The notes beneath the pieces were generated by a model that saw only the letters and a program-made list of their open reading frames with translations, ran no database searches and had not been told where the DNA came from. Of a DNA stretch of 64,000 nucleotides, positions 6,630 through 47,842 are shown in pieces. The DNA lies in the IMG/VR virus record IMGVR_UViG_3300032213_002832, positions 64,001-128,000 of that record; one strand, given 5' to 3'. Source of the DNA: a virus. The position numbers and the translations under genes are program-made. Within the stretch, counting starts at the first letter, position 1. Each line of letters opens with the position of its first letter.

Positions 6630-8027
6630 ATGAGTAACAAAAAATGGCAAATAAAGCATCAAGGTAAGTGGTATTCACTTAATCATATAGTTGATAGTGG
6701 TAAACCTTCTCATGAAGAGGGTGGCGGAAACCATTATCATGTAGATGGTCATGAACCAATTAGCCAGCATGATATTGAAGATATTGACATGAGTGGTCAG
6801 CAAGATCTTAATAAGCGTGAAGATAAAATACCCGGCGGTTTAGCTGATAAGAAGAAACCCTCTGACTTTGATAGTGAGAAATTAAAAGCTGGTATCAAAA
6901 TAGAAATGGAACATACTAGTGATAGAGCTGTAGCTGAAGAAATTGCTATGGATCATCTCACTGAAGATTCAGAGTATTATAAGAAACTAAAAGAAGTAGA
7001 AAAATATGATCGCGTAGAAGTAACCCCTGATGGGAAGCGTGAACTTACATATGGAAAAGAAGATCTGAGTAAAGAACCAGACTTGAAAAAACGTTGGAGT
7101 AAACTTAAAAAAGCACTAGATAGCAGTTCTGCCATAATGGATTTAGCTGAAGAGAGTGGAGATGATGAGTCAGATGCTCAACCTGAAGCCCAACCAGATG
7201 CTCAGCCTGAAGGCGACGTTGACCAAAGTGCTCAGCCTCAACCAGACGCACAACCAGAAGATAGCGGTCAAGATGATTCACAGCAAGAAGATGAAGCACA
7301 AAAAGAACAAGAAGTAATTGACTTCCTTCGCCAAGAAGGGTATGATGATACAGAAATCGCATATATTGTACGAAACCACAGTATCCCTATCCCTACAAAA
7401 GATGATAATGCCGCACAAAATGAAGCAGCTAAGGGAGAAATGGAGCAAGCACACTTACAAGAAAAACACGAACTTTCTCATGCGCATAAACAAGATGCTC
7501 ATGAACAAGAACGTCAACAAGATGACGAAGAATATAAGGTTAGGCTAGAGCACAAGAAGCGTATGTCAGAAGTTGAATACGAAAAAGCCAAATCTGACCT
7601 AGTAGATCCTAGTTTAGCTGGAGAGCATAAAAAGAAAATGCTTGATATTGAAGTTGAAATAGCTAGTAAGAAAAAAGAGCAAGCAGCTTTAGAGGTTGAA
7701 CATAAGAAGCGCATGTTAGACTTAGAATATGAGAAAGCTCATAAAGAAGCTAATAAAGAAGATCCAGCAGAAGCTACACAGAAAGAGCAATTACAATTTG
7801 AATTAGACATGAAGAGGATGGAGAAGGAGCTTGAACTTGAATTTAAAAAGAAAGAATTAGCTCTTAAACTAAAACTCACAGAAGAAGCAGCAAAACAAAA
7901 ACATGAACATGCTAAGCAGCAGTTTGAGTCAGACGCGGCAGTTAATTCTCAAGTAAAAGAGAACCAAGCTAAACATAAAATAGCTGAATCTAAAAAACCA
8001 CCAGTTAAGGAGAAAAAAGGTGAATAA
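6630..8027 (+). CDS. DUF5661-domain protein with acidic QPD/QPE linker and long coiled coil
   Basis: KIPGGLADKKKPSDFDSEKLKAGIKIEMEHTSDRAVAEEIAMDHLTEDSEYYKKL; repeated EHKKRMLDxEYE heptads. Confidence 0.7.
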   Translation: MSNKKWQIKHQGKWYSLNHIVDSGKPSHEEGGGNHYHVDGHEPISQHDIEDIDMSGQQDLNKREDKIPGGLADKKKPSDFDSEKLKAGIKIEMEHTSDRAVAEEIAMDHLTEDSEYYKKLKEVEKYDRVEVTPDGKRELTYGKEDLSKEPDLKKRWSKLKKALDSSSAIMDLAEESGDDESDAQPEAQPDAQPEGDVDQSAQPQPDAQPEDSGQDDSQQEDEAQKEQEVIDFLRQEGYDDTEIAYIVRNHSIPIPTKDDNAAQNEAAKGEMEQAHLQEKHELSHAHKQDAHEQERQQDDEEYKVRLEHKKRMSEVEYEKAKSDLVDPSLAGEHKKKMLDIEVEIASKKKEQAALEVEHKKRMLDLEYEKAHKEANKEDPAEATQKEQLQFELDMKRMEKELELEFKKKELALKLKLTEEAAKQKHEHAKQQFESDAAVNSQVKENQAKHKIAESKKPPVKEKKGE

Positions 8028-8337
8028 GATTGAAGCACTTATAAAAGCATTATCAGATGTAAAAGAGAAACTTACAAAAGATGCTTTAGATGACAAGATT
8101 AAAGCTAAAATGAAAGCTGAAATGGATAAGCGTAATTTTGGTGATAAGCAAGTTGCTGACCATTTACGTGACACAGACGAATCTATTCCTGCTGCCCAAC
8201 GTAGTAATATCAAAAACTCACTTAAGATACAAAATGCTCCAAAACCTAAACTAACAATAGTTAAGGGTGAGGAGTGTTATAAGATCAGTGATTTAGGTCA
8301 ATGGGGTATTGAAAAGAAGGATAAAGATAATGGCTAG
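8020..8337 (+). CDS. Hypothetical, probable head protein (GQWxxEK motif)
   Basis: Overlapping GTG start; shares ISxxGQWxxEK with ORF 49579. Confidence 0.6.
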   Translation: MNKIEALIKALSDVKEKLTKDALDDKIKAKMKAEMDKRNFGDKQVADHLRDTDESIPAAQRSNIKNSLKIQNAPKPKLTIVKGEECYKISDLGQWGIEKKDKDNG

Positions 8338-27316: not shown

Positions 27317-27392
27317 TGGACGCGGGTGTGGGATGTGCGCCCACGATCTGAAGGTTATGAGCCTTCCGAGATAACTGCTACTCTAACCCGCA
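27317..27392 (-). tRNA. tRNA-Met(CAU), initiator-like, CCA encoded
   Basis: Reverse complement folds as a cloverleaf: TGCGGGT/ACCCGCG acceptor, GAAGG-CTCATAA-CCTTC anticodon arm, GTGGG-CGCACAT-CCCAC T arm, A11:U24, 3' CCA. Confidence 0.85.
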
Positions 27393-37431: not shown

Positions 37432-38316
37432 ATGGGATTATACATGGCTATATCTGATAACAATGTGACCCAAATACTTGATTATGATGTTGATTTTAAA
37501 AAACGTCGTATCTATTTTGGTGCGCTTAACGCAAGTAATGACGAGAACGGCTCTGAATTTACTTGGCGCTCTGTAGAGCGTGCGGTAAGGCATATCCATA
37601 TAATGGAAAGTGACGCGCCTGCTAAGCCAATAGAGTTACATATGTCTAGCATAGGTGGTGATACTGCTGCTCTTTTACGTTTATATGATGTCATACAAAG
37701 CTGCTCCTGTCAAATTAAGTTCATCGGTGGTGGAGAGATAAGTTCATCAGCCACTTGGATTATGGCTAGTTGCGATGAGCGTCTACTATATCCAAATACT
37801 ACTATTACAATTCACGATAGTGGTTGGGGTGAAGCAGTGTCTCCAGAAAAGCTTGTAGACAAAAGTATTATGATTGATAACGAAAAACTATTACAACACA
37901 AACTAAATCAGATATATGCCGATAACTCTATAATGCCATTAGAGTTTTGGACAGAGATGGTTAAACGAGATCTCTATCTCACCGCAGAAGAAGCTATCAT
38001 GTTAGGCTTAGCTGACAAGATTATTCAACCGCGTAAAAGAGGTAGCTTGCGTCGTAACCGTATAGCAAGTATGAAGCAAGAGAGAGATAAGAAAGATATG
38101 AGTAAGATGTTAAAGATGCTCAAAGATCGTATCTATATGGATAAACTCTCAAAACTAGAATTACATCTTCCTGAAGAGAAGTTCGATAAAACGCTAGTGA
38201 TTGACAATACAGTAACAGTGGAAGTCCCTACGGTAGTAGCTCCTTTAATAGGAGGTACAAGCCAATCAGATGTCGATTTTCCTCTTCCCACTCTTCATGG
38301 CAAGACGAACACCTGA
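37432..38316 (+). CDS. clpP: ClpP-like protease with C-terminal extension
   Basis: SSIGG, ISSSA (Ser), TIHD (His), KRDLYLTAEEAIMLGLADKI (Asp). Confidence 0.8.
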   Translation: MGLYMAISDNNVTQILDYDVDFKKRRIYFGALNASNDENGSEFTWRSVERAVRHIHIMESDAPAKPIELHMSSIGGDTAALLRLYDVIQSCSCQIKFIGGGEISSSATWIMASCDERLLYPNTTITIHDSGWGEAVSPEKLVDKSIMIDNEKLLQHKLNQIYADNSIMPLEFWTEMVKRDLYLTAEEAIMLGLADKIIQPRKRGSLRRNRIASMKQERDKKDMSKMLKMLKDRIYMDKLSKLELHLPEEKFDKTLVIDNTVTVEVPTVVAPLIGGTSQSDVDFPLPTLHGKTNT

Positions 38317-38405: not shown

Positions 38406-39809
38406 TTACTTAGCAGCTTCTATACGAGCTTCATCAAATGTACACTGGCTAAACTCCAAACCATTTCGGAATACTACTCTTAATTCATCTTGTTCTGAAT
38501 AATTGTAATTTTCTTTAACAGTGAGATATTTTTCATTACTAGGGTTTCGGTCATCCCATCCAGTCATTTTAATTAGTTTTAAACGACCTCGTTTACTATT
38601 CTTACTTGGATCTGTAGCTGGAGCCTTATAAACTTCTCGTTCTTCAACATAATTAACTACTATGCTGCTACATTTGAATGCGAATCGTTGTGTATCACGA
38701 TTAACTTGTTGTAGAAGAGCTCCACCACATCCAAATGCTACGTTATCAGCAGACCAACCAGCATTAGTCATAGCATCTAAAATACCAATAAGAGAATCGT
38801 AGTTAACGCCATCTCCCTGTATAACTCTTACTTGATCTGGCAATATCTTATATCCTTTAGCATTAATACTATAGCCAAAAGCATCTCCAAGCGCATTTAG
38901 AACTTCAACAACGATTTTTTCAGGGTTGCCAGAGTCAGGTCTCACTACAAGAGTACCTTTACGAGCTAATACTTTATCGCGTAATTTCTTACCCCAAATT
39001 TCTTTACAAGCATGAATTATGTCAAATGAGTCAGATACACAAGCAACCAATCCTTCTGGATATTGGTCTAACATGTTTTCCATAGCATCCGCTTCGCATT
39101 CTGGTCCCCAACTTGTTATTGTTGAGTGTTCAGAAGCCGGGATAGAGAATGCTGGCATGTCAGCATAATAGTATTTTTGTGCTAAAGTAATAGCAGCTAA
39201 AGTATCAGTACCCATAAAGTTAAGTAAATGAGCAGCTCCGCCAAGTCCAGCAGACTCAACACTAGATACACCACGAAATCCAAAATCATGAAGTTTAAAA
39301 GCAATTAAATCTGGGTTACCAGTCATTTTCAGATAACTAAGTATTACATCTTTCATGTGTCTAGATAGGGTCGCGACGGTAGTTGGATACCAAACATGTA
39401 ACAAAATAGTTTCTAGATAATTAGTTAACCAGAAACACTCTGGATCTGTATTCTCAACAGTGACAAGAACATTGCCTTCTTCTACTACAGTGCCTTCAGG
39501 AACTGCTTTGATGCGGACTGGTAACCTACCATCATGCTTATCTAGTATATGTTGCCATCCAGCTTTATTAAATAAGTTAGGGCCTAAGTGCTTAGCAAAG
39601 AAAGCATCTGCTTCATCTATCTTCTCTTGCGTTACAACTTTACCACTAAGGTAACGTCCAATAATATACTGTAATCCAAAGAAGGTTGTCTTTGTAAACT
39701 TCCCACCTTTGCGAGCTTCTAAGTATGAATATACTGAAGTAGTTCCAGGTGGATATTGCTTGAAATGAGTTGCCTTATAACTGTCCGTAAGTAGCATGAT
39801 GTTGTCCAT
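38406..39809 (-). CDS. nadV: Nicotinamide phosphoribosyltransferase
   Basis: TDSYK, WYPTTVAT, LHDFGFRG, PASEHS, VSDS, VRPDSG, IQGDG, NRDT. Confidence 0.95.
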   Translation of the reverse strand: MDNIMLLTDSYKATHFKQYPPGTTSVYSYLEARKGGKFTKTTFFGLQYIIGRYLSGKVVTQEKIDEADAFFAKHLGPNLFNKAGWQHILDKHDGRLPVRIKAVPEGTVVEEGNVLVTVENTDPECFWLTNYLETILLHVWYPTTVATLSRHMKDVILSYLKMTGNPDLIAFKLHDFGFRGVSSVESAGLGGAAHLLNFMGTDTLAAITLAQKYYYADMPAFSIPASEHSTITSWGPECEADAMENMLDQYPEGLVACVSDSFDIIHACKEIWGKKLRDKVLARKGTLVVRPDSGNPEKIVVEVLNALGDAFGYSINAKGYKILPDQVRVIQGDGVNYDSLIGILDAMTNAGWSADNVAFGCGGALLQQVNRDTQRFAFKCSSIVVNYVEEREVYKAPATDPSKNSKRGRLKLIKMTGWDDRNPSNEKYLTVKENYNYSEQDELRVVFRNGLEFSQCTFDEARIEAAK

Positions 39810-39843: not shown

Positions 39844-40875
39844 CTATAATTTGTTTGTGAAATAATTGATTATATGTAAGTGATCCTCATAGAATTCTGA
39901 CTCTTTAATAAATAAGTCTGCTATTGGAATCCATATCGCTCTTTCAGCATCGTCATCACCTTTAACTTGTGGAAGTTGTCCACCGTCAGGTAGTTTTACG
40001 CAAAAAGCATTAGTAATAGTACGACCACGTAGCGATCTACTCGGATTATCAAATACACGCTGGTCAACTATGTATTTCATTAATGTATCTTTTGGTACTA
40101 AGATACGAGTCTCTTCTTTGAGCTCACGAAATGCTGAGTCAATAATAGTTTCATTTTGGTTTACGAAGCCACCTGGAAGTGCTAGAAGCCCTTTACCAGG
40201 ATTAAACTTCCTACGAATAACTAGAACATGGGCGTTTTTAACTACTAGAACATCAGTAGTGACAAAGGTTACTGGATATGGTGCCATTGCCCACATGTCT
40301 TTATAATCTTTAATAAACTTCCACTCTTCAACTAAGTTAGTATATGTTGTAGTCTTTTCCCAATTTGTTAAATAATCTGTTACTTCTTTAGCTAAATTAT
40401 TGGTAAACTGAGGGTTGTTTTGAAAGTATAAGTTACGAATCTCAGTGGCATGTGTTACATTTCTAGCGATAGAGAGTTCTCGTTTCCAACTCTCTGGAAG
40501 AGCATCTAGATACCAAGAGCTCTCATCTTTATTAGAACCTAATACGCATATGCTTGAAGTTTCCACATTATATATTTGATTCATTACTGAGTTATGTAAG
40601 TCAGTAAACCAAGCTGTATCATTATAGTAATAATCACGAACTTGTACAAAAATAAGTCGAGTATTTTCTAATTTAGAGAAACAAACTCTAACCATCTCTT
40701 CACGTTCTTGAGCATTCCAGGGGTTTTTAATGTTTGGGGCAGCACGATGTGAGCCAAGAGCAATAATTACATTATTGGCTAATTCTAATCCGCGCTTGAT
40801 TTGATTGATGTGTTCTTTGTGGGGTGGTTGGAGTCGGCCAATGAAAACCGCATAGTCATACTTATACTTATTCAT
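39844..40875 (-). CDS. nadM: Bifunctional NMN adenylyltransferase / ADP-ribose pyrophosphatase (NadM-Nudix)
   Basis: GRLQPPHKEH, KNPW, ALPGGF..RELKEET Nudix box, RSLRGR, DDA, EDH. Confidence 0.93.
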   Translation of the reverse strand: MNKYKYDYAVFIGRLQPPHKEHINQIKRGLELANNVIIALGSHRAAPNIKNPWNAQEREEMVRVCFSKLENTRLIFVQVRDYYYNDTAWFTDLHNSVMNQIYNVETSSICVLGSNKDESSWYLDALPESWKRELSIARNVTHATEIRNLYFQNNPQFTNNLAKEVTDYLTNWEKTTTYTNLVEEWKFIKDYKDMWAMAPYPVTFVTTDVLVVKNAHVLVIRRKFNPGKGLLALPGGFVNQNETIIDSAFRELKEETRILVPKDTLMKYIVDQRVFDNPSRSLRGRTITNAFCVKLPDGGQLPQVKGDDDAERAIWIPIADLFIKESEFYEDHLHIINYFTNKL

Positions 40876-40920: not shown

Positions 40921-40948
40921 ATTATACCACAATATATCGAAACGGTTT
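40921..40948 (-). promoter_or_regulatory. Composite promoter: motif variant AAACCGTTTCGA plus TGTGGTATAAT
   Basis: Both elements directly upstream of the NAD operon. Confidence 0.65.
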
Positions 40949-41489
40949 ATTGATCAGTACAGATTTTTTCTCTTACAATCGTAATCTCTGTATTTTGATC
41001 ATGTCGTCTCACTATCATTGTAATACTAGTACCTGGTTCACCCCTGATTTCTCCGTAAGGTGTTATAATATCACCAACTTTAAGTCCAGCTTCATCAGCT
41101 GGATAATCATCTACCACATTAGAGATTTGTTCTTGAGTAGGACTTAAGCGTTTGGAATTAATACCGATACCTCCATACCATTTCTCACACTCATATCCCG
41201 ATTTTTCACTATCTACAAGAACCTGCTTAAGAGTATCACCCTCTTTATCTATGACTTTTTTAGGCTTGCTTTCAGTGGGTGTAGGCTTATTCTCTACCAT
41301 GTTAGGTGGTTTCGGCATAATGTTCTTATTGTCACCCTTATTATCTTCTTTATCTTTACCGGTCTTATTATCAATAATAGTCATAGTGATAGCTTCTCTT
41401 TTCTCTACTTTATCGTGACCTTTCATTAGGATCGACATTGTTGAGAAGAAAAGCGAATGTACAAATATACTAAGTACTATATAGTTCAT
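40947..41489 (-). CDS. Membrane-anchored PDZ-domain protein
   Basis: N-terminal TM, K/P-rich linker, YGGIGI, PADEAGLKVGDII, RGEPGT. Confidence 0.75.
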   Translation of the reverse strand: MNYIVLSIFVHSLFFSTMSILMKGHDKVEKREAITMTIIDNKTGKDKEDNKGDNKNIMPKPPNMVENKPTPTESKPKKVIDKEGDTLKQVLVDSEKSGYECEKWYGGIGINSKRLSPTQEQISNVVDDYPADEAGLKVGDIITPYGEIRGEPGTSITMIVRRHDQNTEITIVREKICTDQ

Positions 41490-41510: not shown

Positions 41511-41535
41511 TGTGGGGAGTCATTGACTCCCCACA
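41511..41535 (-). terminator. Terminator hairpin
   Basis: TGTGGGGAGTC-ATT-GACTCCCCACA. Confidence 0.75.
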
Positions 41536-41558: not shown

Positions 41559-41822
41559 TTAGATAGATCCATTAACCTTACGGTTCTTAAGGGCTTTAAG
41601 AAGACGTGCTTTAGGCGTCTTTCCATAAGCAGCAAACTTTCCGTTACCTTGGAAAACTTGTTCTGTTTGTCCATTTAGCCATGTGTCTAGTGCTAATGAC
41701 TTTTCTGAAAACACACCTTTGCGAGGAGATACTGTATAGTATGGTCCTGCTTCTGTAACTTTTCTAGAGTTAACACTTTGTAATGCTGCTACAAAAAAAC
41801 TGATTGTATAACCTTTTGACAT
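41559..41822 (-). CDS. Small basic hypothetical protein
   Basis: AAGGA RBS, followed by a terminator. Confidence 0.65.
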   Translation of the reverse strand: MSKGYTISFFVAALQSVNSRKVTEAGPYYTVSPRKGVFSEKSLALDTWLNGQTEQVFQGNGKFAAYGKTPKARLLKALKNRKVNGSI

Positions 41823-41896: not shown

Positions 41897-44188
41897 TTAT
41901 ATTTTATTTTCCAATATGCCTTTAACAATATTCTCCACACTATCATTCTTATATGTAGTGATGTTGTCAAACTTTTCTTCCATATTTGGTAATACTAATT
42001 TCGTCTCAAATTCACCAATCACTCTAATTGCCGTTTCAGCATCTTTTATAGAGGGATGATTCTCTCTTGCTATGGCTCTTTCAGTACATATATCAGCCGG
42101 AACATCTAGAATTACAGCGGATACATCAGTGAGTTTAAAGTTCTTAGCTAAATCAAGCCAACTCTTTCTTTGTAGTACATCGAAGTTACAACGATCTATA
42201 ACAACATTCTTATTCTGCTTTATAGCTTCTACTGTAGCCTTCTTACAAGCATTACGTGATCCCAAATCATCTTGGTTCACACGCACATATCCATGTTTCT
42301 CAAGCTCTGTTGCCACGGTAGATTTACCAGAACCAGGTAGGCCAACAAGTATGATCATCTTAGATTTACTTGTATTATTACTTTTATTGTTATTATTATA
42401 ATAATACATTATGTCATCACCAAACTTACCCCACTCTTTTGGTCCCATATCAAGTTCTGCTTGTAATAACTCTTTAGTCACAAGCTGATCTTCAGAGAGA
42501 ATCTTCTTTACAGCCTCATCTACTCTGCCCTGCATAGTAGCATCAAAATTCTGCCAATGAACTTCCTCTATATCTGAAGGTTTTATCTTATAAAGAGTCC
42601 TATTAATAACGTCACAATTCTCATCTAATAAATACATTACTTTGCCTTCTACAGCAAAATGTTCATATTCATACTTATGAGGTAAATTCTTAAACTTACG
42701 GTATATTAAGTTACTATTTAAATCTTCAAGTTGATGTTGCTTACATTTAGCTACCACATCAATAGGTGCTGAAAAGCAATTAATGTCATCCTCTGCGAAT
42801 ATAACAGGTCGTATAGCACCATTATCGGTAATAACAAATAGTGGTTTTAAATCTATATCAAAATTATATTCAACTAAATGTGGCTCTTTTTTACCACACA
42901 ATTCAGCAGATACAGCACTTACATGGTGGTATTCTAATAACTGTGTTATCTTTTGTACTGTCTCTTCATTATTTAACAATACTTCTCTAGTTAAAGATAA
43001 GAAATTACCCATAGGAGAGTCGCCTAAGAATGGTCTACCTTTAGATTTAGCTGTAACAAACACTGTATTCTCAGCATCAGTATACTTATAGAATAATACA
43101 TTCATACCATTCCACTTTTCAGCGAAGTATACATATTTATAATCTTTTATATCCATGTACTCTTTAGATCCATATGTTTTATATGGATATGCCAGTTTAG
43201 GAGTACCATGTACAAGCTGTTGCTTAACAACTATACCATTCACATGAGTAATTAGCAATGAACCCTGCATTAACCCTTTTTCACGACATATAATTCCACT
43301 CACATGATTGCTTTTATTAAACGGATCTTCCATGGTAAATTTATCAGTGAATTTAATATTACATCCAAACAGTTTAGCAGCTATTGCTCGGTACTTATCT
43401 AGTTCACTAGTAGGTACCGCACTTTGCTCTAAGCACTTAATTTCTTTAAAAGGTTGCCCATGCTTAGCTCTTAATACATCTACTGTACCAGTAGAGAAGA
43501 AGCAACCATTAATAACTTTATCATCAGTTAAACCAGCGCTTGTGTCATACCACTTCCATAAAATACCGTCAACTGCTCCAGGTTCTTGGCCAGCAGTACA
43601 GTGAACATGGCCAGACATGTAGGCCTTGATTCCAGCCGCACCTATAAGTTCTGCTGTAGATACACTCTGTGGATAATGTCCTATCAATACTGGAATAGGG
43701 TTTTTAAGTGATTTAGACTGATGAACCACATCTTTAGCGAAGTCCACTATATTCTTATTAACTTTTTCCATATCTTCTGTTTTTAAAGAGTGATCTGAAT
43801 AGCAGCCAATAACATATGGGCCTAATTGCATTATTTCATTTTCACCAATTATATGTAACCTAGGTACATTTAAGCTAAGTTTTAGCTCTCCAACTCTCCA
43901 TGATGCGTCGTGATTTCCACGACATACAACTATATGACCTAATATATTAGCTCTAAGCCAGTTTAATGAATTAAATACTGAACGCCCGTACATATCATGA
44001 GTAATGTCACCAGTAATAAAAGTGATATCGTTTTCACTTATATTTTCTTTAGCAAAGTCTGCTATAGCTTCTAAGTAATTAACAAAAGTCCATGAACCAA
44101 TAGCCCACCTACGCTCATGCATCTTTTTAATAGGCTGCATGTTCTCATCCATGGAGAGGTGGGTATCTGAAATATGCCAAATTTTCAT
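41897..44188 (-). CDS. Tri-domain RNA repair enzyme: metallophosphoesterase, RNA-ligase-like adenylyltransferase, polynucleotide kinase
   Basis: SDTH/GD/GNHD/GHVH; GTPKLAY, EKWNGMN (motif I), AELCG, VEGKV, YKIK; VGLPGSGKST, NQD, IDRCN. Confidence 0.8.
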   Translation of the reverse strand: MKIWHISDTHLSMDENMQPIKKMHERRWAIGSWTFVNYLEAIADFAKENISENDITFITGDITHDMYGRSVFNSLNWLRANILGHIVVCRGNHDASWRVGELKLSLNVPRLHIIGENEIMQLGPYVIGCYSDHSLKTEDMEKVNKNIVDFAKDVVHQSKSLKNPIPVLIGHYPQSVSTAELIGAAGIKAYMSGHVHCTAGQEPGAVDGILWKWYDTSAGLTDDKVINGCFFSTGTVDVLRAKHGQPFKEIKCLEQSAVPTSELDKYRAIAAKLFGCNIKFTDKFTMEDPFNKSNHVSGIICREKGLMQGSLLITHVNGIVVKQQLVHGTPKLAYPYKTYGSKEYMDIKDYKYVYFAEKWNGMNVLFYKYTDAENTVFVTAKSKGRPFLGDSPMGNFLSLTREVLLNNEETVQKITQLLEYHHVSAVSAELCGKKEPHLVEYNFDIDLKPLFVITDNGAIRPVIFAEDDINCFSAPIDVVAKCKQHQLEDLNSNLIYRKFKNLPHKYEYEHFAVEGKVMYLLDENCDVINRTLYKIKPSDIEEVHWQNFDATMQGRVDEAVKKILSEDQLVTKELLQAELDMGPKEWGKFGDDIMYYYNNNNKSNNTSKSKMIILVGLPGSGKSTVATELEKHGYVRVNQDDLGSRNACKKATVEAIKQNKNVVIDRCNFDVLQRKSWLDLAKNFKLTDVSAVILDVPADICTERAIARENHPSIKDAETAIRVIGEFETKLVLPNMEEKFDNITTYKNDSVENIVKGILENKI

Positions 44189-44199
44189 ACTAATCCTTT

Positions 44200-44514
44200 T
44201 TATACGTCACTGTATTCAAACTCTTTACTACCACTATGAGAAATGAGAGTGAGTTTTAAATGTTCGTATGGTAATATTTTCCATTCATAATCTAATAACT
44301 GAAGTTTATCATCTTTATAAAGATCCGTAAGTACTCTATGTATAGCAGAGGAATGCATGCTAGAATGAGATTTAAGTATCACATTTATAGAGTCTTGTGT
44401 AATCAGTTTATCTTGTTTAAGATGATTTAGCATAGCAGTCTTGCAATCCATCAGCTCAAATAATCTATTTAGAAACTCTACCTTCTTATTCATCATCAAT
44501 CTCCGAGTAATCAA
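44200..44514 (-). CDS. Hypothetical protein
   Basis: Probable start MMNKK with GGAG. Confidence 0.55.
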   Translation of the reverse strand: MITRRLMMNKKVEFLNRLFELMDCKTAMLNHLKQDKLITQDSINVILKSHSSMHSSAIHRVLTDLYKDDKLQLLDYEWKILPYEHLKLTLISHSGSKEFEYSDV

Positions 44515-44690: not shown

Positions 44691-45806
44691 TTAGTGAAAA
44701 TCAGTGTTATCTCCAAGTAGATATTCATCACTAATTAATTTAAGCACCTTACGTCCTATGTGGCACTTTTCTTCTTTGATAGGACGGATCACTACACCTT
44801 CTATTACCTTTTGGCTTGGTACCATCACTGAGTTACCCTTAGTGAGCTCTTTAGCTTTGGCTGTATCGAAAGGTCCTTTATATAGTACTGGGACAGTTTC
44901 GAATCCGAGTTTAGAGCACAGAGATTCTACATAGCTTTGATCTGTAAAGCCATTTCCAACAATCATTGTATCGAATATTACTAGCTTACGCTCACCTTCT
45001 TTACAACCGTATGTATACCCTTTTTGGATACCAGAGCCGTATATCTCGCCATAAAAGACATGACCTTTAAGTCCTTCAGTCTTTTTCTTTAAATCATATT
45101 GAATAACAGCTGCTTCATATACGTTTCCAATACCCATTTTCTCATAATAATCTTTGTTAAAAGATGTTTTACTTTGAAGTTGTACTCTATTAGAGCCAAA
45201 CGCAAATTCATACTTAGGTAATAAGCCAAATAGTTTCTTTACTTTCTTGAAAAATGTATCAGCTACTGTTGGGACCCAGCCGAATCGGAAGTTGGTTCCA
45301 TGAACCTTTTCAGTAATGAAGACCTCTTCACCTTCTTGAAATAGATTTGGGTTATGTTTAAAGTTATCAAGTCCACCATATTCCGCAAAGTATGGGTTCT
45401 TGTTTTTCTTTGGAGCCGGGCTTCCAGTCATTGATGGAGGTGCTTCTGGTGGCTCAAACTTAGTGATACCTAATTGCTTAGTACAGTCATACCCTTCTTT
45501 TTCAGGTACTTTGAATACGCTACACTTGGCTAACATGCCTTGAGAAATACAGCCTCTTAGCTTAATTGTCTTTACACGAGATTTGCTAAGCTTAACTTTA
45601 GAATCAGGCGAGAATAGGACATCTTCTACTTCTTTAGAGAGTATAGAGTCAATCGGAATATAGATTGCTAAATCGCCTGCTACAAAAGCGCCTTTTTGAA
45701 TTACACATTGCCATCCAGCAATATGCGCCACCTCGAGGCGATCAGCATTTGGAACAGGACTTATACTACTTATCTTTACTACTTTAACTGAAAAATCTGA
45801 AGCCAT
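44691..45806 (-). CDS. RNA ligase, DRB0094 family (N-terminal OB fold)
   Basis: PNADRLE..GWQCV..GDLAIYIPIDS; TEKVHGTN; GEIYG; EGVVIRP; KLISDEYL. Confidence 0.9.
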   Translation of the reverse strand: MASDFSVKVVKISSISPVPNADRLEVAHIAGWQCVIQKGAFVAGDLAIYIPIDSILSKEVEDVLFSPDSKVKLSKSRVKTIKLRGCISQGMLAKCSVFKVPEKEGYDCTKQLGITKFEPPEAPPSMTGSPAPKKNKNPYFAEYGGLDNFKHNPNLFQEGEEVFITEKVHGTNFRFGWVPTVADTFFKKVKKLFGLLPKYEFAFGSNRVQLQSKTSFNKDYYEKMGIGNVYEAAVIQYDLKKKTEGLKGHVFYGEIYGSGIQKGYTYGCKEGERKLVIFDTMIVGNGFTDQSYVESLCSKLGFETVPVLYKGPFDTAKAKELTKGNSVMVPSQKVIEGVVIRPIKEEKCHIGRKVLKLISDEYLLGDNTDFH

Positions 45807-47050
45807 TATTTATCATTCCTCCATCGAAGTATAACCGGAAATCTCATTACACCATCGGCACTTAAATCTTGGTATTTAATCTCTGCTATTCTACCCACCG
45901 CTAATGATGGCGTATTCCATATATTAGATCTATCTTCATCTGTAAATCCAGAACCTACATCACATGCTAAACCATTCTCTTGAATAAGCTTTAATCCACC
46001 CATCATCCCAGCATATTTGCCTTCACCTTCATATAGTCCAACAACTTTACAATCCATCGATTTCATTGTTTTGAACTTCATTAGGCGATTAGACTTCTTA
46101 CCAAGGTAATATGGGATATTAGGCAATGCCATAGCACCTTCTAAACCTTGTGCTAAGTATTGTCTTTCAAGCTCTAATATCTCATCTACACTTTTAACTA
46201 AGGCTTGAGTGACCTTTACTATATTAGTGAGATTAGGATTTTGCTCAAAGAATAGGTCGAGATTCTCCAGTCTCTCTTTAGTGACCATCTTAAAGCTGCT
46301 ACTATTAAATTCATTAGTTGGAATCCATCCAAACACATGGTATTTGACATCGCCCACACTCTTCTTGCTTTTGCTTGACATTGCTGTTTGCTGCATGGCA
46401 TTGAAGTCATCTGACATGATCTCGCCATCTAAGATGAAATAGGTATCTTCGCAAAGACTCTCTAGTGTTTCTTTAATAGATGGGAAGTTCTCAAACTCCG
46501 TACCATTGCGTGAAAACAGTTGTACTTGGCCATAAGAACATATAGCAAGACACCTGTATCCATCAAGCTTAGGGCTAACATAAACACCTTCTTTGACCAA
46601 CGCCGGAAGGTTCTTTGCTTCCTTACCATCCTTAGCTAACATCACATCAAAGTCAGGGATATTGAATCCAGCTTTATTAGCTTCAGTGAGTCCAAAGCCG
46701 GCACGCAAGTTCTTACGCAATACACGCGCATACCATTTAGCCTCTAATGGATTAAGCAATTCAAATACCTTATCTACTTCACCTTTAGCCTCATTTCCAG
46801 TGATACTTCGTGTCTCTAATCTATTTAGTAATTTCATAAATATTGTATGAGTTGTCTTAGTAGCTTTAGTATCATCTGGAAAACCAGCTACATCATTGAA
46901 CTTCTTAACATAATACTTACGTTTGAAGTTGAGAGCAGCATCAATTAATTCTGCCAACTCAGTATTGTTCTGGTTGGCAGTTAAAATCTTCTGTTTCTCG
47001 GATGTCGATGAGGTTTTCTCGAGCAAATCTAATACGTCGAGCGCATTCAT
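45806..47050 (-). CDS. lig: ATP-dependent DNA ligase
   Basis: PKLDGYRC, LDGEI, EGAM, KFK, VGSGF, RFPV. Confidence 0.92.
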   Translation of the reverse strand: MNALDVLDLLEKTSSTSEKQKILTANQNNTELAELIDAALNFKRKYYVKKFNDVAGFPDDTKATKTTHTIFMKLLNRLETRSITGNEAKGEVDKVFELLNPLEAKWYARVLRKNLRAGFGLTEANKAGFNIPDFDVMLAKDGKEAKNLPALVKEGVYVSPKLDGYRCLAICSYGQVQLFSRNGTEFENFPSIKETLESLCEDTYFILDGEIMSDDFNAMQQTAMSSKSKKSVGDVKYHVFGWIPTNEFNSSSFKMVTKERLENLDLFFEQNPNLTNIVKVTQALVKSVDEILELERQYLAQGLEGAMALPNIPYYLGKKSNRLMKFKTMKSMDCKVVGLYEGEGKYAGMMGGLKLIQENGLACDVGSGFTDEDRSNIWNTPSLAVGRIAEIKYQDLSADGVMRFPVILRWRNDK

Positions 47051-47059
47051 ATTATCTCC

Positions 47060-47842
47060 TTAATGTTTTGATAAAAAAGCTTCTAAAGCACTTAGAGGTA
47101 CTAGCATAGCAAAAGCTCTAAGCTGACCCTCTACTAACGACATTACACCAACTACTTCACCATCTTCATTAAGAGCAGGCGATCCACTCTGTCCCTTATC
47201 AGCTAACGCGTCTGTGAACATAAAAGGTGCCGTGAGAACACATATTTGTTCATTTTTTATTGTTCCATCTTTTAATTTTATCGAAACGGTTTCAATTTTA
47301 TACTTTTTAGCTACGCAGAATTTTAGATCTTCTAGTGGATATTGGTTGGATATAAGAAAACGCCCACGATAATGTCCACTTGAAGAAGACAATAGTGGGA
47401 CAATAGGATATCCTACTATGGTGACTTTTGAGTCAATATAAACATCTTCAGCTAACTTAATAGATTTAAAATGAAAATCTTTTGGTACCTCAACAAGACA
47501 TAAATCGTGTTCACTATCAAGTTTGAGTGGTTTTACTTTAAATCGTGAATATTTTCGTAAAATATTATTCTCTCTATGAGAGACAATAAAGAGTGGTAGT
47601 AGGTTGTTTATTTCGCACACATGAGCATTAGTAATAATGACCTGTTTACCACTTTTTGTATTAGCGAGAAAGCCAGTACCACTGGATCCAGTGGTAACAT
47701 CTTCTAAAGATACGATTGATTCAGCATTTTGGTGTAAAACATTCTCTGATTCATGAATAGTTTTCTCGTGATCAATAATAGAAAAACTAGAAACCATGCC
47801 GAGTATTACCAGTAAACCTATTATCATTCGATTGTCCTTCAT
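47060..47842 (-). CDS. Secreted/membrane-anchored trypsin-like serine protease
   Basis: Signal/TM, GTGF, TNAHVC, DLCL, GQSGSP. Confidence 0.88.
   Translation of the reverse strand: MKDNRMIIGLLVILGMVSSFSIIDHEKTIHESENVLHQNAESIVSLEDVTTGSSGTGFLANTKSGKQVIITNAHVCEINNLLPLFIVSHRENNILRKYSRFKVKPLKLDSEHDLCLVEVPKDFHFKSIKLAEDVYIDSKVTIVGYPIVPLLSSSSGHYRGRFLISNQYPLEDLKFCVAKKYKIETVSIKLKDGTIKNEQICVLTAPFMFTDALADKGQSGSPALNEDGEVVGVMSLVEGQLRAFAMLVPLSALEAFLSKH
47281..47292 (-). promoter_or_regulatory. Motif variant AAACCGTTTCGA
   Basis: Intragenic, about 230 nt upstream of the ligase genes; identical to the 40937 copy. Confidence 0.45.

Follow-up and report, generated by a model that had tools for sequence, protein, structure and literature searches.

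A gene for a single protein that joins three different catalytic domains has been found in a 64,000-nucleotide stretch of viral DNA, hereafter the window, which covers positions 64,001 to 128,000 of the IMG/VR record IMGVR_UViG_3300032213_002832. The record comprises 167,515 bp with direct terminal repeats, has been judged complete and represents an uncultured 167-kb phage. The gene is one unbroken open reading frame (ORF) exactly at 41897..44188 on the minus strand, which starts with ATG, carries AAGGA 8 nt 5' of this codon and encodes the 763-residue protein P0001. From the N to the C terminus, P0001 consists of a binuclear metallophosphoesterase (MPE, residues 1-261, 43406..44188), which is the proposed module for healing 2',3'-cyclic phosphate and 3'-phosphate ends, a predicted ATP-dependent RNA ligase (LIG, residues 262-600, 42389..43405) and a polynucleotide 5'-OH kinase (KIN, residues 606-763 plus the stop codon, 41897..42373), all encoded on the minus strand. 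This domain composition and order, which had been read from the letters alone in the original prediction, have been borne out by the single ORF, by Pfam matches to Metallophos and AAA_33, by the ligase motifs and by the folds of AlphaFold2 (AF2) models. We consider it probable that P0001 is a single-chain enzyme for the healing and sealing of RNA ends, with its activities, substrate, order of steps and biological role inferred from the evidence set out below.

The N-terminal domain matches Pfam Metallophos over residues 1-197 (E 1.5e-12, 48.8 bits against a cut-off of 21.5) and possesses the complete series of metal-binding motifs, namely D8-x-H10, G60-D61-xx-H64-D65, G91-N92-H93-D94, H171 and G193-H194-x-H196. 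Conservation of all three active sites of P0001 has been scored on 46 full-length homologues of 37-90% identity. In this alignment, as in a second one of 22 sequences, D8, H10, D61, H64, N92, H93, D94, H171, H194 and H196 are invariant wherever they are aligned, D8 and H10 being gapped in two of the 46 homologues. The AF2 model, with a predicted local distance difference test (pLDDT) score of 93.9, shows the standard MPE fold, and motifs, family score and fold together place the domain in the binuclear metallophosphoesterase superfamily (PF00149). In fold comparisons by VIA (Z 15.1-13.3) the best matches have been two uncharacterised MPEs of thermophiles, aq_1956 and TT1561 (Z ~15), followed at Z 13-14 by 5'-nucleotidases, Mre11/SbcD, Rv0805 and GpdQ, and Mre11/SbcD has been ranked first by both Foldseek and the sequence profile. 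Residues 1-261 thus form an intact MPE of its own sub-family, whose relatives do not reveal its substrate. As it is fused to KIN and LIG and no other healing phosphatase has been found in the genome, we infer that this domain would hydrolyse 2',3'-cyclic phosphate and 3'-phosphate RNA ends; diesterase and monoesterase activity are both possible for one MPE, as in Pnkp and lambda phosphatase (PMC2190708).

The central domain of P0001 has no match in Pfam, NCBIfam or PHROGs. The KWNG tetrapeptide, by which a nucleotidyltransferase (NTase) had been recognised in the original prediction, corresponds to residues 358-361 and opens a series of motifs in canonical order: I (K358-W-N360-G361), Ia (K381-S-K383), III (E429 in FELCG), IIIa (F451), IV (E514-G515-x-V517) and V (K534-x-K536). 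The motif residues I to V are invariant or nearly so in the 46 full-length homologues. In an alignment of 26 sequences, which takes in protists and reaches down to 29% identity, no variation is seen at K358, G361, N363, E429, G432, E514, G515 or K536, and K358 is present in every aligned sequence of both sets (26/26 and 46/46). K358, whose codon lies at 43115..43117 on the minus strand as computed from the ORF start, is the lysine predicted to be adenylylated. The Trl1 ligase contains the motifs TLKENG, SKHS, Glu218, His241, EGFVIR and FFKYK (PMC6379707), and the set in P0001 runs parallel to them as KxNG, SK-, E, an aromatic residue at IIIa, EGxV and KxK.

The AF2 model of the central domain (pLDDT 91.2, predicted template modelling score, pTM, 0.84) has been matched exclusively to RNA ligases by the 30-odd best hits of Foldseek and the 12 best of VIA. 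Foldseek places T4 Rnl1 (2c5u) on top with E 5.9e-7, next to the Trl1 ligases of Candida and Chaetomium (~1e-6) and an archaeal Rnl3 (2.6e-6). With VIA, the highest scores have been obtained for archaeal Rnl3 (5d1o, Z 14.1, root-mean-square deviation 5.2 A, 257 residues aligned), T4 Rnl1 (9do4, Z 13.9, 5.1 A, 259 aligned) and fungal Trl1 (6n0t, Z 12.8, 6.2 A, 271 aligned), and lower ones for Rnl5 (9.8), Rnl2 (9.5), the Pnkp1-associated Rnl 4xrp (8.0), DNA ligases (<=7.5) and the C-terminal ligase of Pnkp (4drf, 6.4); unrelated folds follow at Z ~5. Motif order and NTase fold assign the domain to the NTase superfamily and, as the fold matches are RNA ligases and the motifs are conserved, the nucleotidyltransferase assignment rests on more than KWNG. 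Accordingly, the structural model describes a putative ATP-dependent RNA ligase with a predicted lysyl-AMP at K358.

Beyond the NTase core, two flanking parts of the ligase can be distinguished. The structural alignment with T4 Rnl1 spans Rnl1 residues 1-302 and that with Trl1 likewise begins at the N terminus of the model; therefore, a sub-domain of the Rnl1 type, which is common to Rnl1, Rnl4 and Rnl6 (PMC6379707), is present at the N-terminal side. Motif V is followed by a C module of ~55 residues (544-600) with three helices, which extends no further than the beginning of the C domain of Rnl1 and in isolation resembles nothing but helix-turn-helix domains (Z ~5). Its conserved residues are H544, W545, F548, E578-L-D-M and W586, giving the signature HW...ELDMGxKEW. 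The Rnl1 family model PF09511 is unmatched by P0001 at E <= 1 and by its central domain at E <= 10; it is matched by one of 26 members of the ligase family (8.6e-4), and PF09414 by two members (6e-3). Protein-language-model neighbours of the ligase fall into PF09511 Rnl1 clusters in 28 of 30 matches (score 0.97), which may be taken as a lead only. The RxxR site with which Trl1 has been proposed to bind a 2'-phosphate has not been found in residues 537-551 of P0001, nor does arginine rank in the top three at any of positions 539-551 across the 46 homologues.

For the C-terminal domain, the Pfam match is AAA_33 (E 4e-16), and the nearest solved relative is the RNA 5'-OH kinase RazKIN of Rhizopus azygosporus (PDB 9d8a, E 8e-27, ~50% identity over 128 residues). 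The P-loop G616-x-x-G-x-G-K622-S-T (GLPGSGKST) and the residues D640, R674, R704 and R708 are conserved in 45 or 46 of the 46 homologues. Among these, D640 is equivalent to Asp36 of the Mucor homologue MciKIN, and R704 and R708 are equivalent to the lid arginines R99 and R103 of RazKIN, with the roles taken from PMC11571804. Walker A, catalytic Asp, lid arginines and homology to a characterised member thus identify a polynucleotide 5'-OH kinase. In vitro, RazKIN and MciKIN have both been shown to act as GTP-dependent RNA 5'-OH polynucleotide kinases, and MciKIN is able to complement tRNA splicing in yeast (PMC11571804). The G-loop that specifies GTP, in which RazKIN has a serine, lies outside the alignable region, so that the phage kinase allows no prediction of its phosphate donor. 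Ligase and kinase are connected by a linker (residues about 593-607, 42373-42410 on the minus strand) which is of Asn/Ser/Lys-rich low complexity (YYYNNNNKSNNTSKSK) and is not conserved by the homologues.

A word-indexed search for relatives of P0001 has returned ~47 full-length homologues of 730-778 residues and 38-90% identity, all of them metagenomic; every long contig examined looks phage-like, and the public names of these proteins are limited to 'predicted phosphohydrolase/predicted kinase'. In 50,697 GenBank phage records, the ligase domain has remained unmatched by megablast and tblastn at E <= 1, likewise its stand-alone relative P0141, and the kinase part has found a single match, a polynucleotide kinase of a Microbacterium phage. 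Exhaustive searching with a profile of the ligase domain has yielded 699 clusters at E <= 0.001. Among the proteins fetched, the architecture MPE-LIG-KIN has been counted 48 times, LIG-KIN 40 times, LIG alone 114 times and MPE-KIN nine times. In the MPE-KIN forms the ligase is cleanly missing between the equivalents of P0001 residues ~255 and 600, with the flanks still being ~50% identical. One LIG-KIN protein, P0084, shows a weak C-terminal match to tRNA_lig_CPD and thereby the arrangement of Trl1, in which a cyclic phosphodiesterase (CPD) follows ligase and kinase. Dictyostelium discoideum and a number of protist transcriptomes also contain LIG-KIN proteins (among P0065-P0070 and P0094) with 30-41% identity to the phage protein, and the homologue of Balamuthia mandrillaris is the ligase part alone. 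Two of the protist homologues, P0066 and P0068, have a degenerate Walker A, so that their kinase may be inactive, and all of the protist homologues are annotated as hypothetical or misnamed 'FYR N-terminal domain'. The domain order of P0001 had been called unusual: this holds for the N-terminal MPE, which is new in the place of a C-terminal 2H-type CPD, and not for ligase followed by kinase, which is the order of Trl1 and of plants and the core of the family, as seen in the 40 LIG-KIN proteins.

In a FastTree phylogeny, the stand-alone ligases of ~390 residues form one well-supported clade and all kinase-bearing proteins the other. Within the latter, a sub-clade with support 96 unites the phage MPE-LIG-KIN proteins with short LIG-KIN and LIG forms of phages, and the named protists are placed outside this sub-clade. 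As many forks are unresolved and branches are long, no direction of transfer between protists and phages is concluded from this tree.

The gene lies in a run of genes on the same strand which encode, in order, a trypsin-like serine protease (47060-47842), an ATP-dependent DNA ligase of 414 residues (45806..47050; Pfam DNA_ligase_A_M plus OB_2, phrog_114 E 4e-96), an RNA ligase of the Rnl5 type with 371 residues (44691..45806), a small ORF of up to 104 residues (44200..44514), the trifunctional protein, an 87-residue ORF directly downstream of it (41559..41822), and, beyond a hairpin, a protein with a weak PDZ domain (40947-41489), a fusion of NMN adenylyltransferase and Nudix (NMNAT-Nudix, 343 residues, 39844-40875) and NAMPT (467 residues, 38406-39809), all on the minus strand. 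For the two small ORFs no family has been found. The Rnl5-type enzyme is a nick-sealing ligase resembling DraRnl and NgrRnl with an N-terminal OB domain (PHA02142 OB-fold 2e-21, RNA_ligase 8.8e-21, NgrRnl 5cot E 1.8e-15). Its gene start is overlapped by the stop of the DNA ligase gene and it lies 500 nt upstream of the trifunctional gene, so that three ligase domains are encoded within 5 kb. The hairpin (41511..41535, minus strand) is terminator-like, with an 11-bp stem of which seven pairs are G-C; it is a pattern match only, and it probably ends the transcription unit of ligases and RNA repair. A scan for promoters has given fewer matches than shuffled sequences, and no promoter is claimed. 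Further away, a ClpP-like protease that also resembles head-maturation proteases is encoded at 37432-38316 on the plus strand, and the sole tRNA gene found in the window, tRNA-Met (CAT), at 27317-27392 on the minus strand. The pair of NAMPT and NMNAT matches NARP2, a pathway by which phages reconstitute NAD+ as a counter-defence (10.1101/2024.02.11.579819; PMC13464706), and thus fits a counter-defence island. Defence models of PADLOC have produced marginal matches only, at <=19 bits.

The lack of Hen1 in the window, which had been pointed out before, extends to the whole 167.5-kb genome at E <= 0.001. RtcB, Tpt1 and a second AAA_33 kinase have not been found in the genome, nor has a homologue of HAD_PNKP when three HAD_PNKP proteins from relatives were used in tblastn. 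PF09511 is unmatched in the genome in a search whose control also gave no signal. A 2H-type CPD has not been seen near the gene, with 2H families not having been searched in the genome as a whole.

The context in related phages has been compared on six individually fetched contigs and on L013, a 133-kb phage that was the sole related IMG/VR locus returned. On phage-like contigs of 90-175 kb, the full-length gene lies near genes for a DNA ligase, an AAA protein, NAMPT and NMNAT-Nudix. The contig L007 carries the ligase-less MPE-KIN form in the same neighbourhood together with an Rnl5-type ligase, and the NAMPT/NMNAT-Nudix pair accompanies the RNA-repair gene in L007 as well as in L009. We have considered whether the fused ligase substitutes for Rnl5, as L007 (without a fused ligase) has Rnl5 and the fused forms L009, L011 and L012 have none within 8-10 kb; the phage described here has both, and the rule is not strict. 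On L008, the gene caller had missed a small Metallophos_2-like ORF (7397-8092, plus strand, E 1.2e-5), which runs into the start of a LIG-KIN gene and possibly represents the MPE module in an unfused form. On L013 (7551-12076, plus strand), a stand-alone LIG lies between two PF09414 RNA ligases; this trio is interspersed with an ORF resembling GIY-YIG homing endonucleases. Genes for Clp-like and trypsin-like proteases recur in L009 and L011.

Several observations weigh against P0001 being an enzyme of RNA healing and sealing, and they concern all three domains. The profile of the ligase family has given nothing significant against PDB sequences, the best hit being a spurious one to flocculin (E 0.2), and hhalign of the central-domain alignment against T4 Rnl1 has returned a probability of 0.4%; the assignment as a ligase accordingly depends on motifs and predicted fold, without a significant sequence match to a solved or curated ligase. 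For the MPE, the structures of Pnkp and lambda phosphatase, which heal RNA ends, have not been retrieved by sequence profile, Foldseek or fold searches, and the modelled fold is generic, with nearest structures that include the Mre11/SbcD nucleases and cyclic-nucleotide phosphodiesterases. The contribution of the MPE is also made questionable by a separate HAD 3'-phosphatase in most of the relatives examined. A stand-alone HAD_PNKP protein of 147 residues is encoded next to the MPE-containing gene in three of four related contigs (L007 8001-10004, L009 10588-11031, L011 12297-12740), following the full-length gene directly or nearly directly in two of three (L009 and L011, not L012). Finally, kinases of the RazKIN or PNKP type act on DNA as well, and a DNA ligase gene adjoins.

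A first alternative leaves RNA repair to ligase and kinase. The MPE might then be a nuclease that trims damaged terminal nucleotides, or a hydrolase of 2',3'-cyclic or other signalling nucleotides, with the 3' end being healed by another protein such as the HAD_PNKP of the relatives. Besides the position of that gene and the generic matches of the fold to Mre11, 5'-nucleotidases, Rv0805 and GpdQ, motif II would agree with this view, as it reads GDxxHD, the form of Mre11, and not GDxxDR, the form of lambda and Pnkp phosphatases. However, the phage has neither a HAD_PNKP homologue by tblastn nor RtcB, and no 2H CPD has been seen near the gene, with 2H families not having been searched genome-wide; a kinase-ligase pair alone could not use 2',3'-cyclic phosphate ends, and an MPE fused to KIN even where the ligase is missing is an architecture of end healing. 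We hold an MPE outside RNA healing to be unlikely.

The second alternative is that P0001 processes DNA ends and seals nicks, as a phage counterpart of multi-domain repair proteins of the LigD type or of PNKP combined with a ligase, and that it would clean and reseal the 3'-phosphate/5'-OH DNA breaks left by host nucleases. Mammalian PNKP, a DNA repair kinase, indeed ranks second among the PDB matches of the kinase (E 1.7e-11), MciKIN phosphorylates DNA besides RNA (PMC11571804), the ranking of Mre11/SbcD for the MPE points in the same direction, and the ATP-dependent DNA ligase is encoded two genes upstream. On the other hand, the ligase fold scores Z 12.7-14.1 with RNA ligases and <=7.5 with DNA ligases and lacks an OB domain, the LIG-KIN core is found together with a CPD of the Trl1 type in P0084 and the ligase among RNA ligase genes in L013, and the phage already possesses a dedicated DNA ligase, so that this possibility appears distinctly improbable. 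RNA healing and sealing is preferred because an RNA-ligase fold and an RNA-kinase kinship coincide with an MPE-KIN fusion that is kept with or without the ligase, with three conserved catalytic centres, and with modules that recombine with CPD, HAD phosphatase or other RNA ligases.

The known systems which had been named for comparison, bacterial Pnkp (KIN-MPE-LIG plus Hen1), fungal Trl1 (LIG-KIN-CPD) and the divided T4 Pnkp and Rnl1, agree in their composition with the literature (PMC3675462, PMC6379707). Among characterised enzymes, bacterial Pnkp alone unites an ATP-dependent RNA ligase with a P-loop kinase and a binuclear metallophosphoesterase in a single chain (PMC3675462, PMC2190708), and the enzyme of Clostridium thermocellum, which works with Hen1 and has an Rnl4 ligase, therefore shares its three kinds of module with P0001. 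In P0001, however, their order is MPE-LIG-KIN, the bacterial family model TIGR04075 reaches 28 bits where its cut-off is 750, and this in the kinase region only, the ligases are remote from each other in fold (Z 6.4 for 4drf, 8.0 for 4xrp), and the phage genome has no Hen1.

With Trl1 and the plant enzyme AtRNL (Rnl6), P0001 has in common the ligase directly followed by the kinase, KxNG in motif I, SK- in motif Ia and the Rnl1-like N sub-domain; its kinase is moreover closest to that of Mucorales tRNA splicing, which shares a GTP preference with the Trl1 kinase (PMC11571804). RazKIN and MciKIN themselves agree with the phage kinase in P-loop, catalytic Asp and both lid arginines and differ in being stand-alone eukaryotic proteins. 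Unlike Trl1, P0001 has no 2H CPD, with an N-terminal MPE instead, and no RxxR site, in a genome without Tpt1; its ligase gives no significant sequence match to that of Trl1, and the C module is different and shorter.

T4 Pnkp and Rnl1 are likewise encoded by a phage, and the same chemistry is expected: removal of the cyclic phosphate to 2',3'-OH, 5' phosphorylation and ATP-dependent sealing that does not require a 2'-phosphate. Like T4, which has Rnl1 and Rnl2, the present phage has a second, nick-sealing ligase. In contrast, T4 uses two proteins where P0001 is one, and its 3' healing is performed by a HAD (DxDxT) phosphatase instead of a binuclear MPE; the T4 kinase matches P0001 only faintly (E 0.25), and the C module of Rnl1 has ~120 residues against ~55 here, with PF09511 unmatched by P0001. 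A viral single-chain ligase-kinase-phosphatase, baculovirus AcNPV ORF86 (Pnk/Rnl), was reportedly described by Martins and Shuman in 2004; it is said to combine an Rnl2-type ligase with a T4-like kinase-HAD phosphatase and would thus differ from P0001 in both the types and the order of its modules.

By family, P0001 is accordingly assigned to the NTase superfamily, the PNK-type kinases and the MPEs, and it falls outside Rnl1 as defined by the PF09511 model, outside Rnl6 and outside Pnkp/Rnl4. By analogy, it might work like T4 Pnkp plus Rnl1, with the LIG-KIN order and motif style of Trl1 and the parts list of Pnkp in neither its order nor its lineage. The novelty lies in a ligase clade without annotation and in the new combination of three domains of which it is part, and not in a new principle. 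The combination MPE-LIG-KIN has not been described in the literature searched, which did not cover Burroughs and Aravind 2016 (NAR 44:8525), where it may already be listed; a jumbo-phage review from the Burroughs/Aravind group mentions only 'calcineurin-like' domains as an occasional source of phosphatases.

In the mechanism that we propose, the N-terminal binuclear MPE would open the cyclic phosphate and then remove it to leave 2'-OH/3'-OH, and the C-terminal P-loop kinase would phosphorylate the 5'-OH with D640 as general base and R704 and R708 as the lid. The central ligase would adenylylate itself at K358 with ATP, pass AMP to the 5'-phosphate and join it to the 3'-OH, and nicks in duplex RNA would be handled by the adjoining Rnl5-type ligase. 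As the MPE should be capable of phosphomonoester hydrolysis and is not a 2H CPD, the ligase has no RxxR and the genome has no Tpt1, a T4-like pathway independent of a 2'-phosphate, with a clean 3'-5' junction, is expected. Rnl1 and Rnl4 seal breaks in stem-loops, Rnl2 and Rnl5 nicks in duplexes (PMC4408790), and this division of labour suggests that the fused ligase serves broken loops, for instance a cut anticodon, and the Rnl5 enzyme nicks. Since Hen1 is missing and the ligase fold is not of the Rnl4 kind, no partner should be needed. The self-sufficiency of the enzyme that had been postulated is thus plausible for this phage, as its ligase is far from the Hen1-dependent Rnl4 (Z 6.4 against 13.9 for T4 Rnl1); considering the HAD 3'-phosphatase of the relatives, it may not hold throughout the family. 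The enzyme is, moreover, not the only ligase of the phage.

The role would be one of counter-defence, namely to restore tRNAs or other RNAs of translation that have been cut by host anticodon nucleases or toxins. Counter-defence is likely; tRNA cut by anticodon nucleases, which had been proposed as the target, would be the corresponding substrate. P0001 might alternatively serve the RNA metabolism of the phage itself, in the processing or splicing of phage RNA or in the repair of self-inflicted cleavage that regulates host translation. It is in line with such a role that the nearest characterised kinase acts in tRNA splicing (PMC11571804), that the LIG-KIN homologues of protists are presumably housekeeping proteins, and that the window holds a single tRNA gene. 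The block in which the gene lies includes, however, further accessory genes besides the NAD+-reconstitution pair, the presence of the gene and of its modules varies from one related phage to the next as is typical of accessory genes of counter-defence, and T4 Pnkp/Rnl1 has its established role in repair after cleavage by host PrrC (PMC6379707, citing Amitsur 1987). Consequently, we give a function in the phage's own RNA metabolism very little weight and favour the repair of RNA damaged by the host.

Regarding the origin of the enzyme, a ligase with an Rnl1-like N sub-domain, an NTase core and its own conserved three-helix C module would be hard-wired to a kinase of the RazKIN type, and this LIG-KIN cassette, which is common to uncultured large phages and diverse protists (Dictyostelium, Balamuthia, marine and soil transcriptomes), may imply a transfer between eukaryotes and phages. 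The MPE would then have been captured by a phage lineage, giving the first autonomous one-polypeptide machine of RNA repair that is independent of Hen1 and of a 2'-phosphate. We offer this scenario tentatively, at a little short of even chances.

Cleavage of RNA, especially of tRNA, is a widespread bacterial strategy against phages, and to our knowledge the T4 Pnkp/Rnl1 pair is almost the sole phage answer that has been worked out. If our interpretation is true, P0001 provides a compact and partner-free alternative to this pair, built from different parts. One enzyme that seals 2',3'-cyclic-phosphate/5'-OH RNA ends could possibly be used in RNA-seq library preparation and RNA circularisation. 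The P0001 family is common in uncultured phages of 90-175 kb, and its ligase domain goes unnoticed by Pfam, NCBIfam and PHROGs, with records saying 'hypothetical' or 'phosphohydrolase/kinase', so that the capacity for RNA repair in phage metagenomes is under-counted. The occurrence of the LIG-KIN core in amoebae and other protists is relevant, furthermore, to the question of how eukaryotic tRNA ligases of the Trl1 type arose and to the flow of genes between phages and eukaryotes.

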